A DNA stretch of 40,681 bases from assembly GCA_040289575.1 (NCBI GenBank), contig PSLL01000007.1, forward strand, positions 76,918-117,598, given 5' to 3'. Positions within the stretch are counted from its first letter, which is position 1. Each line of letters begins with the position of its first letter. Of this stretch, positions 23,098-26,058 are shown in pieces. Origin of the DNA: Candidatus Dadabacteria bacterium (GTDB lineage Bacteria; Desulfobacterota_D; UBA1144; Nemesobacterales; CSP1-2). The notes below the pieces were generated by a model, which had not been told where the DNA came from, searched no databases, and saw nothing but the letters and a program-made list of their open reading frames with translations. The position numbers were made by a program, and so were the translations under genes.

Positions 23098-23126
23098 TTG
23101 ACAATTTCATTCGGCATTGTTAGGAT
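23098..23126 (+). promoter_or_regulatory. dnaA promoter
   Basis: TTGACA-N17-TAGGAT with TGn extended -10. Confidence 0.7.
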
Positions 23127-23201: not shown

Positions 23202-23233
23202 TTATCCACACCCTGTTGATAAGTTGTGGAAAA
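23202..23233. promoter_or_regulatory. DnaA-box cluster upstream of dnaA
   Basis: TTATCCACA 23202-23210, TGTTGATAA 23214-23222, TGTGGAAAA 23225-23233. Confidence 0.85.
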
Positions 23234-23255
23234 GTTGTTGGTTTTTGGAGGATTC

Positions 23256-24737
23256 TTGGCTAAGAAAGTAACCCTGGGACGCAATCTTAGATCCCTTTTT
23301 CCAGATGAAAACGATAAAGAAGCATTTAGAGGAATAGGCCTATTTGTAAAGCCCTCTAGCCCTTCTTCTGCTAATAATCAAAAGACCGACACACCCAATG
23401 AGATTGTATGGGAAGAGGTAATTGAGAGGATAAAAAAGAAATCAAACCCTCAGGTGTTTTTCTGGTTTGATTCTCTAAAGCCCGTGTCGCAGAAAAACGA
23501 ATCTATTACGCTAAAGGCTAAAAGCCCGTTTGAGAGAGACTGGATAACCAACCACTATATGGACGTTATAAGTAAAGCTGTAGAAGAGATTGGTGGAAGG
23601 AAGTTTGAGATCAAGATTATATCTGATGCCCCCTCCCCGGTTTCAGTTGAAGAGATTGAAGAAGAGTCGAAACCTAGGGAAAAGAAGGAGATACTCTTCT
23701 CGGGGTTTCTCAACCCGAATTATACATTTGAGAGATTCATCGTAGGGCCAAGCAACCAGTTTGCACATGCCGCTTCGATTGCAGTGGCAAGAAAACCCGG
23801 AGAGGCATATAACCCTCTTTTTATATACGGTGGGGTGGGGCTTGGAAAGACCCATCTAATCAATGCAATTGGAAACTATATACTTAAGACCACACTCGTG
23901 GCAAGGATATGCTGCATATCCGCCGAAAATTTTACAAACCAGGTGATAAACAGCATAAAGTCCAATAAGATGGAGGAATTCAGGAACAGATACAGGTTTG
24001 GCTGCGACGTCCTCCTTATTGATGACATACAGTTTATTGCAGGAAAAGAGAGCACACAGGAGGAGTTTTTCCATACATTTAACACACTCTATGAGTCAAA
24101 GAAGCAGATAGTAATCTCAAGCGATAAGTCTCCCAAGGATATGTCATATCTCGAAGAGCGATTGAGATCGAGATTTGAGTGGGGACTCATTACCGACATT
24201 CAACCGCCTGAGACTGAGACAAAGGTTGCGATACTCAAGAAAAAGGCGGAAGCCGAAAAGATAATGCTCCCGGATGATGTTGCACTATTTCTTGCCCAAA
24301 ATATCACATCCAACATAAGAGAACTCGAGGGAACTCTGACAAACATCAGTGCTTATGCAAAGCTCTTAAACACGGAAATCACGATAGAGCTTGCTAGAGA
24401 GGTTCTAAAAAACATAGTAAAAGAGCACACAAGGCAGGTCATGAGCATAGAGTCCATTCAAAAAGAGGTTGCCAACTTCTTTGGGATAAAGCTCCAGGAA
24501 CTAAAATCAGAAAAGAAGGTGAAAAACGTTGCGCTTCCAAGGCAGGTCGCCATGTACCTTGCAAGGAGGTATACAGGGGCATCATTTCCAGAAATCGGAG
24601 AGAAATTCGGAGGGAAGGACCACTCTACGGTAATACACGCAGTAAGAAAGATCGAAACTATGATAGGAGAAGACCCAACACTTAAAGAGATGGTAAATGC
24701 TGTATCGAGAAGAATCAACACATCAAGGAGTGGATAG
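23256..24737 (+). CDS. dnaA: Chromosomal replication initiator DnaA with N-terminal extension
   Basis: YTFERFIVGPSNQFA, YNPLFIYGGVGLGKTHL, LLIDDIQF, QEEFFHTFN, RLRSRF, NIRELEG, RQVAMYL, GGKDHSTVIHA. TTG start at 23256 behind GGAGG. Confidence 0.98.
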   Translation: MAKKVTLGRNLRSLFPDENDKEAFRGIGLFVKPSSPSSANNQKTDTPNEIVWEEVIERIKKKSNPQVFFWFDSLKPVSQKNESITLKAKSPFERDWITNHYMDVISKAVEEIGGRKFEIKIISDAPSPVSVEEIEEESKPREKKEILFSGFLNPNYTFERFIVGPSNQFAHAASIAVARKPGEAYNPLFIYGGVGLGKTHLINAIGNYILKTTLVARICCISAENFTNQVINSIKSNKMEEFRNRYRFGCDVLLIDDIQFIAGKESTQEEFFHTFNTLYESKKQIVISSDKSPKDMSYLEERLRSRFEWGLITDIQPPETETKVAILKKKAEAEKIMLPDDVALFLAQNITSNIRELEGTLTNISAYAKLLNTEITIELAREVLKNIVKEHTRQVMSIESIQKEVANFFGIKLQELKSEKKVKNVALPRQVAMYLARRYTGASFPEIGEKFGGKDHSTVIHAVRKIETMIGEDPTLKEMVNAVSRRINTSRSG

Positions 24738-24937
24738 TCTGTGTATAACCCTGTGGGAAATTCTGTGGATGAAATTGTGGATAAAAAACATGTAGATAAG
24801 TTGTGTATAGATTCCGGAATTTATCAACAGAGTTATCAACCTCGAAAACCCAATACTATAAAGGCTTCCTTTGACTTATCCACAATTTCACAGTCCCTAC
24901 TACTACTGCTATTTGTATTTTAATATTTATTCTTTTT
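24729..24937. other. oriC: DnaA-box array and DNA-unwinding module
   Basis: About ten DnaA boxes (consensus-perfect at 24740, 24776, 24876), then ATTTCACA-GTCCC-TACTACTACTGCTAT and an AT-rich tract. Confidence 0.92.
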
Positions 24938-24951
24938 AGGAGTAGAAGGAG

Positions 24952-26058
24952 ATGAAATTCAGGGTGGAAACAATAAGACTCGCCGAAAGGTTGGGGTTGG
25001 TACAGGGAATTGCAGAAAGACGTGCTACTATGCCTATACTCTCTCATGTTCTGGTTCTTGCTTCCGATGGAAAAATCAAACTCACCGCAACCGATCTTGA
25101 AACTACTATGACGACTTGGTGCGATGGGAGTATCCTAAAAGAGGGCAGTCTCACCCTTCCGGCTAGAAAGCTCTATGAGATTGTAAAGGAGCTTCCTCTT
25201 CAGGGCGAGATTGAGATTGAGGAGATTGGAAACCATTGGACTCAGATTAGGGCACAGAGTGCGACATTTAAAATCGCGGGGCTTCCCGCCGAGGATTTTC
25301 CGTCTACTCCTCAACTGCCTTTGGACAGCCTATTTCAGGTAGAAAGCCGAACGCTTGACGATATAATAGGAAAAACCATATTCGCAGTTTCTCCCGATGA
25401 CCTAAGACGGAACCTATCGGGGATTTATTTTGAAAAAAGGGGGATTAGGACTTTGAGACTCGTTGCTACAGATGGACACAGACTCTCTCTGGCCGAGAAG
25501 AATATTGAAGATGATATAAAACTCAAAAAAGGCGTTGTTGTTCCCAAAAAGGGCGTGTCAGAACTGAGAAAGATGGTGAAGCTCGATGAGAATGTCAAGA
25601 TTGGGTGCGGGAAAACCGATTTCGTTGCCCAAAGTAGCGGAATTTCTCTGGTTGTAAGGCTTATTGATGCCGATTTTCCCGACTACAGGCAGGTAATTCC
25701 AGAAAATACAAAGATAACATTTCATATAAATCGAGAAGAGTTTTTAAGTGCGCTAAGACGCGTCTCTATTCTTTCCGCTGAGAGGACAAAGAGTATTAAG
25801 ATGAGTGTGGGGAGCGAAAAAATGACGCTTGCCTCTGTATCTCCAGAGCTTGGAGAGGCAAAGGAGGTTGTGCCAGTAGATTATACGGGGGATTCTCTTG
25901 AGCTGGGGTTTAACGCTAGGTATCTGATGGATGTTCTTGAGGTTATCAGCGGCAATATGGTTCAGTTAGGAATAACCGATGAATTAAGCCCTGTGGTAAT
26001 TAAGCCAGTCGTTGAAGAAGGAGTTTATGTATCTGTTATTATGCCAATGAGGGTGTAG
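24952..26058 (+). CDS. dnaN: DNA polymerase III beta sliding clamp
   Basis: MPILSHVL, LTATDLE, PARKLYEIVK, VATDGHRL, RLIDADFPDY, GFNARYL, IMPMRV. Confidence 0.98.
   Translation: MKFRVETIRLAERLGLVQGIAERRATMPILSHVLVLASDGKIKLTATDLETTMTTWCDGSILKEGSLTLPARKLYEIVKELPLQGEIEIEEIGNHWTQIRAQSATFKIAGLPAEDFPSTPQLPLDSLFQVESRTLDDIIGKTIFAVSPDDLRRNLSGIYFEKRGIRTLRLVATDGHRLSLAEKNIEDDIKLKKGVVVPKKGVSELRKMVKLDENVKIGCGKTDFVAQSSGISLVVRLIDADFPDYRQVIPENTKITFHINREEFLSALRRVSILSAERTKSIKMSVGSEKMTLASVSPELGEAKEVVPVDYTGDSLELGFNARYLMDVLEVISGNMVQLGITDELSPVVIKPVVEEGVYVSVIMPMRV

Follow-up and report, generated by a model that had tools for sequence, protein, structure and literature searches.

The replication initiator gene dnaA of a Candidatus Dadabacteria bacterium (family CSP1-2, order Nemesobacterales) encodes an additional N-terminal tail that resembles the N-terminus of the chromosome segregation protein ParB. 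The gene lies on a 40,681-nucleotide stretch of the forward strand (the window; positions 76,918 to 117,598 of contig PSLL01000007.1, assembly GCA_040289575.1). Its coding sequence (23256..24737, forward strand) starts with TTG and gives 493 amino acids plus a stop. The tail (residues 1-48; 23256..23399, forward strand) precedes the DnaA_N domain. It is translated, conserved and significantly ParB-like at functionally mapped positions, and it is disordered in a structural model. To the reading from sequence that its first ~16 residues form a ParB-type ParA-docking tag, borne by a flexible tail that precedes domain I, we give about an even chance. As a sequence feature the tail is well supported; as a mechanism it is unproven.

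The original prediction held that this DnaA begins with a peptide resembling the ParB N-terminus, and the comparison with the genome's own ParB agrees. Residues 3-16 of DnaA, KKVTLGRNLRSLFP (motif 1; 23262..23303, forward strand), match the ParB N-terminus KKVTLGRGLDALIP. The two proteins open with (M)KKVTLGRGLDALIPTE in ParB and (M)AKKVTLGRNLRSLFPDE in DnaA, and seven consecutive residues are the same in both. In a single BLASTP comparison, the 48-residue tail and residues 1-60 of ParB share 12/27 identities with an E value of 1e-6. When the tail alignment (20 sequences) is compared by hhalign with an alignment of ParB N-termini (29 sequences), the probability is 90.5% and the E value 1.3e-6 over 25 columns; both checks against ParB that had been proposed are therefore significant. 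In the genome, the pattern [KR][KR]..LG[RK].L..L[LIVMF] has two matches, the N-termini of ParB and of DnaA (2862 open frames of at least 150 amino acids, 921,068 residues). Note that this stricter pattern was written after both peptides had been seen. The looser pattern LG[RK].L..L[LIVMF] has four matches and is N-terminal only in ParB and DnaA. The DnaA protein has no ParB domain in the Pfam scan and does not belong to the ParB/Spo0J family; ParB is encoded elsewhere in the genome, on a different contig. Only the ParB peptide is mimicked or copied in the DnaA tail, which probably arose when the 5' end of parB was copied, or else by convergence.

Relatives were collected by a protein search of 41 genomes of the order (this one included), in which 39 gave a match and 30 loci were retrieved. 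Hereafter f1 is the family of the window, f2 is a second tail-bearing family, and f3 to f8 are the other six families of the order. Alignment of the DnaA N-termini had been proposed as a check on conservation; the relatives keep both the extension and the motif K-K/R-x-T-L-G-R-x-L-x-S-L. Across the order, ParB N-termini hardly vary (LKKxTLG[RK]GLDALIP in 30 sequences) and do not change from family to family. The use of a TTG start is common to dnaA (18/20 loci) and parB (26/29).

The functional map of the ParB peptide comes from Myxococcus xanthus, where the motif occupies residues 11-19 of an unstructured N-terminal region (PMC12462528). Changing L11, L15, L18 or I19 to serine strongly impairs recruitment of ParA. 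R13A keeps binding and almost abolishes stimulation of the ATPase, and R13K reduces it; lysine is found at the equivalent position in about half of chromosomal ParBs (PMC12462528). DnaA has L7, R9, L11, L14 and F15 at the M. xanthus spacing, so that all five mapped positions are present. The four hydrophobic residues (i, i+4, i+7 and i+8) are found in 14/14 f1 loci and in 19/20 loci of f1 and f2 together, the exception being L018 with proline at i. The central arginine (i+2), R9 in the window, is arginine in all 14 f1 loci. In an AlphaFold2 model of residues 1-126 (20 sequences), residues 1-51 have no secondary structure, with a predicted local distance difference test score (pLDDT) of 47-55, and domain I has a pLDDT of about 80. 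The tail is not docked on domain I in this model, and the N-terminus up to the first folded domain is predicted to be unstructured. A complex prediction with two ParA subunits, ATP/Mg and DnaA residues 1-48, run without controls, scored 0.17 and 0.03 against a mark of 0.32 and counts neither for nor against binding.

A candidate partner is encoded in the same genome, which has one canonical Soj-type ParA (E value 1.7e-97 to PDB 8ray). Nine of the ten M. xanthus pocket residues are identical or conservatively replaced in it (Y61, D94, I100, E101, L134, L136, V139, L171 and L176), and the exception is H62 at the position of M. xanthus E82. This mapping uses an offset of 19 between the chain numbering of 8ray and the M. 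xanthus residues, and from the fit of this offset we infer that 8ray is M. xanthus ParA. The genes parA and parB are on another contig than dnaA and overlap by 23 nucleotides. The overlap is at L001 1820-1842 on contig C28, where the codons for the ParA C-terminus (..GGQEVEKSNLR) share bases, in another frame, with the ribosome-binding site of parB, its TTG and the codons for the first residues of the peptide. A second, dedicated ParA partner was considered and rejected: there is one Soj-type ParA and one broken ParA-like frame, and the three other Walker-A frames that were translated look by eye like one ArsA-type and two Mrp-type proteins. The remaining family matches include two in open frames of 800 and 1090 amino acids. 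The broken ParA-like frame, of 117 amino acids on contig C63 (L144 1351-1701, reverse strand), has an intact deviant Walker A, stops short after it and appears to be the remnant of a second ParA.

That the tail is translated is indicated by several features of the locus. As the original prediction stated, GGAGG (23247..23251, forward strand; a Shine-Dalgarno sequence) precedes TTG 23256-23258, with a spacer of 4 nucleotides, and no other in-frame start lies between this TTG and domain I; the next in-frame ATG, GTG or TTG is residue 67, within domain I. Left unmentioned there were the in-frame starts upstream, GTG 23226, TTG 23235 and TTG 23238. GTG 23226 falls inside a DnaA box (23225-23233), and the apparent conservation of 23226-23255 is better explained by DnaA boxes and the ribosome-binding site than by coding. 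In 20/20 f1 and f2 loci a start codon (TTG in 18, GTG in one, ATG in one) opens the frame 3-6 codons before the motif. Of the 19 loci other than L018, 18 have GGAGG within 20 nucleotides upstream of it, and L020 has GGAG. Six loci (L013, L014, L016, L020, L021 and L028) have an in-frame stop 0-2 codons before the start and therefore no alternative start there. The codons of the motif differ between pairs of loci by 0.127, 0.128 and 0.505 at positions 1, 2 and 3 (13 codons in 14 f1 loci, 1183 codon comparisons); third positions are about four times as variable as first and second positions. The invariant leucine, glycine and arginine are each encoded by 4-5 synonymous codons in these loci. Such a pattern marks a peptide that is translated and kept by strong purifying selection rather than a set of conserved DNA sites. 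The ~47 extra residues that had been proposed are thus borne out as ~48.

The opposite view, that the extension is untranslated, that synthesis of DnaA begins from a non-canonical codon close to domain I and that the upstream conservation is at the DNA level (boxes, promoter), is very improbable. It has on its side the DnaA boxes directly upstream and the protein of the deposited record, P0004 (467 amino acids), which begins at ATA 23334 (residue 27) and lacks motif 1. The boxes, however, end at 23233, ahead of the start codon, and DNA-level conservation is at odds with the variable third positions and the synonymous codons of the invariant residues. The conserved TTG and GGAGG and the stops directly upstream in six loci also speak against a non-canonical start, a case that the original prediction had itself raised. 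Gene calls in relatives begin at an upstream GTG (P0002, 503 amino acids) or at TTG (P0003, 492 amino acids). Calls of the ATA-start kind would hide the tail peptide.

Behind motif 1 the tail has a second conserved element, motif 2 (residues 25-33, RGIGLFVKP; 23328..23354, forward strand), with the family consensus [KR]-G-[ILV]-[EG]-x-[LF]-[IV]-x-P. It sits 10-12 residues after motif 1, and its G26 is nearly invariant in the 20 f1 and f2 loci. Motif 2 was considered as a second ParB half-site ([KR]GLDALIP). The likeness is by eye only and has no statistical support, since the ParB hidden Markov model (HMM) gives motif 2 only -3.7 to +0.6 bits. Residues 34-48 (23355..23399, forward strand) are the S/P/N-rich linker that had been described after the peptide; its length and sequence differ among relatives.

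Within the order, the tail is found in two families only. A 37-position tail profile, run over the whole order (101 genomes, this one included), finds it in 46 genomes, all in f1 and f2: 14/15 in f1 (13/14 without the genome of the window) and 32/33 in f2. The 53 genomes of the other families have none (f3 0/5, f4 0/1, f5 0/2, f6 0/2, f7 0/6, f8 0/37). The single f1 genome without the tail (G009) has no DnaA match at all in the protein search, and its tail is missed probably because its dnaA is unassembled. Each tail-bearing genome has one match, in a frame of ~500 amino acids, apart from frames cut by contig ends and one extra match in G090; the latter is internal to a 169-residue protein read as MarR-like and was rejected as chance. 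When the run is extended to the phylum (120 genomes), the 19 extra genomes give two weak matches (E values 0.0045 and 0.0059). One is inside a 517-residue membrane protein (G108) and was rejected as chance; the other, in a 28-residue frame (G118), is presumably chance as well. None of the 80 DnaA loci listed from other phyla carries the motif in front of domain I, including 21 that had been picked out by script because of a long N-terminus or a loose match to the motif.

Of 1.84 billion representative proteins, seven match the tail profile at E values up to 0.001, and five of these are N-terminal DnaA fragments of the same clade. Another, P0010 (169 amino acids, metagenomic), has the two-motif tail of the L013 and L014 DnaAs, followed by a sequence that is neither DnaA domain I nor matched by Pfam; its contig may be chimeric, or the tag may have a second host protein. 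The last, P0011 (873 amino acids, eukaryote-like), has three tandem LGANLKNLFEKK-type repeats near its C-terminus (E value 8.5e-4), with the repeat unit written as ..LGANLKNLFEKKHD.., and belongs to no Pfam family. This match is probably chance or low-complexity. A protein search with residues 1-36 gave no usable match. A homolog search with residues 1-60, whose sensitivity is limited by shared words, gave only three proteins among 17 candidates. In several relatives (G010:C7, G012:C44, G005:C32, G011:C8, G006:C104, G017:C342 and G025:C114) frames of ~320-340 amino acids match DnaA domain IV only. The matches are weak (E values 1e-4 to 3e-11), and the frames look like small DnaA-C-like proteins; the protein search of relatives matched none in the genome of the window.

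Several observations weigh against the docking-tag reading. An HMM of the ParB peptide covers no more than the first 7 residues of the motif in DnaA (5.0-8.2 bits), and in a scan of the genome with it DnaA ranks 8th of 21,459 six-frame segments (5.0 bits); this HMM is built on 30 near-identical peptides and is too narrow. Conversely, the tail profile never retrieved ParB at E values up to 0.01 in the 120 genomes. In its second half the DnaA motif consistently has N where ParB has G (i+3), K/R where ParB has D (i+5), which reverses the charge, and S where ParB has A (i+6), and these substitutions could mean another specificity. The central R/K (i+2) is replaced in five of six f2 loci (H, H, H, N and Y), and stimulation of the ATPase is therefore doubtful in f2. 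The affinity of a single ParB peptide for ParA is weak (1-100 uM), and the effect is stronger when closure of the ParB clamp juxtaposes two peptides (PMC12462528); DnaA offers no such closed clamp. In a DnaA tree of 28 loci the motif-free f5 and f6 nest among f1 and f2 lineages, f5 inside f1 with support 97/90 and long branches. The tree is without L030 and L031, whose frames were missed by the Walker-A pattern, and f7 and f8 are otherwise unrepresented in it. Either the motif would have been lost twice or this single-gene tree misleads. Both f5 and f6 keep parAB, and the motif may therefore be dispensable.

Some of these points are shared by a reading in which the tail, motifs 1 and 2 together, serves as a conserved module of short linear motifs and its partner is some protein other than ParA. 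The module may in that case descend from a copied parB 5' end and have been retargeted since. The K/R at i+5, the S at i+6 and motif 2 are specific to DnaA and absent from ParB, and f2 drops the central R and keeps L..L[KR][ST]LF and motif 2, with ParB itself the same in both families. Yet no candidate for such a partner emerged: the search of representative proteins gave the same-clade DnaA fragments, P0010 and one doubtful repeat protein. The five ParA-contact positions are, moreover, exactly those conserved in f1. We consider another partner possible but rather unlikely.

Two further functions can be proposed for the tail, of which one is binding of the beta clamp by motif 1 (..L[KR]SLF). 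In this Hda-like arrangement the clamp encoded downstream would dock on the N-terminus of DnaA and inactivate or recycle it. The clamp-binding consensus is QL[S/D]LF or QxxLF, with a critical first position (PMC12309361), and Hda, a DnaA paralogue, has its clamp motif at the N-terminus (PMC5295017). The open reading frame read as dnaN is the next gene, and the motif ends in S-L-F in 11/20 loci and in T-L-F in two, with L-F as the last two positions in 15/20. However, the remaining five end in LI (three), LL (one) or VF (one), and Q is found at position 1 in 0/20 loci in either register; in the pentapeptide register L or F stands first, and in the hexapeptide register N, D, T, S, K or E. A motif of 5-6 residues also leaves the invariant T-L-G-R and the upstream K-K/R unexplained, and clamp binding is quite unlikely. 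Slightly less probable again is that the tail acts in cis, as an autoinhibitory fold-back on DnaA, or as an N-terminal degron for regulated proteolysis. Its disorder, basic N-terminal part and hydrophobic patterning are compatible with this, and so is its distribution: it is limited to certain lineages and seems to have been lost in f5 and f6, which is frequent among regulatory add-ons. The specific and significant likeness to the genome's own ParB peptide is not explained by either function in cis, and in the AlphaFold2 model (residues 1-126 only) the tail is undocked on domain I.

The gene itself is a complete dnaA in an origin context. Pfam finds DnaA_N (PF11638) at residues 51-110 (41.9 bits against a cut-off of 24.6, E value 8.3e-11), Bac_DnaA (PF00308) at 152-314 (238.6 bits, 5e-71) and Bac_DnaA_C (PF08299) at 398-466 (109.9 bits, 5.9e-32). 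Domain I (residues 51-123 by Pfam and AlphaFold2; 23406..23624, forward strand), the AAA+ domain and the helix-turn-helix of domain IV are thus all present in the expected order. DnaA boxes are found on both flanks. Three are just upstream of the start, at 23202-23210 (forward), 23214-23222 (reverse) and 23225-23233 (reverse), and six form an oriC-like cluster in the dnaA-dnaN spacer (24740..24884). With a consensus that agrees with the one in PMC5295017 and at most one mismatch, the window has 22 boxes against 9.5 expected, a number reached in 0/100 shuffles. The next open reading frame downstream (24952..26058, forward strand; 368 amino acids) is dnaN-like and is read as dnaN, encoding the beta clamp, from its position and sequence. 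Upstream of dnaA is a candidate sigma-70-like promoter (23098..23126, forward strand; TTGACA, 17 nucleotides, TAGGAT, with a TG). It is a consensus match only, one of two sites against 1.7 expected in shuffles. The assembly is fragmented, and on its contig (C25) dnaA is flanked by ~100 kb on one side and 17 kb on the other. A parS-like palindrome (at most two mismatches to the consensus) occurs once in the 3.06-Mb assembly, as a perfect copy at position 39996 of contig C29. None is found in the window at up to three mismatches or on the rest of C25 at up to two.

If the first residues of DnaA are a ParA-docking tag, the oligomers that DnaA forms on origin DnaA boxes would present many tails side by side and could supply the avidity that the clamp gives to ParB. 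R9 would contact a neighbouring patch of acidic and tyrosine residues of ParA, and origin-bound DnaA would be tethered to nucleoid-bound ParA. In f1, DnaA could then locally trigger ATP hydrolysis by ParA. The outcome would be coupling of initiation to origin segregation, or feedback on DnaA by way of the switch between ParA monomer and dimer that operates in Bacillus subtilis. Binding of the peptide to ParA, stimulation of the ATPase and all consequences downstream of these we infer from the sequence. A stronger version is that DnaA is a cargo adaptor of ParA. The oligomer would be an array of tags, and the orisome would be captured, positioned or segregated directly by the ParA gradient, with hydrolysis triggered by the initiator; each tail would possibly have two half-sites, motif 1 and motif 2. 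This version is tentative and has a modest chance of being right.

The docking-tag reading is plausible because partners of ParA/MinD ATPases use positively charged, disordered N-termini (PMC10241942) and because Soj acts on DnaA in B. subtilis. As to the latter, which the original prediction also named, PMC5295017 agrees: Soj regulates DnaA by its monomer/dimer state, which is set by Spo0J through stimulation of the ATPase. In both systems the segregation ATPase would be linked with the initiator, and the dimer or monomer state of ParA would matter for initiation. In B. subtilis, however, Soj contacts domain III of DnaA and the stimulating peptide is carried by Spo0J; a peptide on DnaA is not described in that system. 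Another likeness is to the N-terminal peptide of ParB. Both are at the extreme N-terminus in an unstructured region, and both have basic residues followed by L-G-R-x-L-x-x-L-hydrophobic with identical spacing of the hydrophobic residues and the arginine. The DnaA peptide differs in being placed on domain I and not on a ParB/Srx CTPase clamp, which leaves no juxtaposition by clamp closure, in its N at i+3, K/R for D at i+5 and S at i+6, in the loss of the arginine in most f2 loci, and in motif 2, which has no shown counterpart in ParB. It is also similar to the N-terminal 'luggage-tag' peptides of ParB, McdB, MinE, PomX and others, short, basic and disordered, which match a cargo with its ATPase (PMC10241942; PMC7993993); in DnaA that cargo would be the replication initiator itself, which is not one of those named in passages of PMC10241942. 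With Hda the protein shares a short N-terminal motif on a DnaA-family AAA+ protein and a dnaN nearby, but it is a full four-domain DnaA, and its motif is longer than the clamp-binding motif and has no glutamine in first position.

According to the original prediction this architecture is not known to have been described, and in searches of open-access full text and bioRxiv no description is found of a DnaA that bears a ParB-like or ParA-binding peptide. In a review of the DnaA N-terminal domain (PMC5448010) the word 'extension' is absent. The mechanism by which initiation is coordinated with origin segregation is known in few model species and acts there through separate proteins, as with Soj and Spo0J on domain III of DnaA in B. 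subtilis. The conserved ParB-like tail suggests a possible direct link between replication initiation and chromosome separation. If DnaA itself bears a docking peptide of the ParB type, it would solve this coordination within one protein, and it would be a natural experiment on what the peptide does alone, outside the ParB clamp. If, in addition, DnaA is a cargo adaptor of ParA, hydrolysis by ParA at the origin would not be triggered only through ParB-parS, and initiation would be hard-wired to segregation in one polypeptide.

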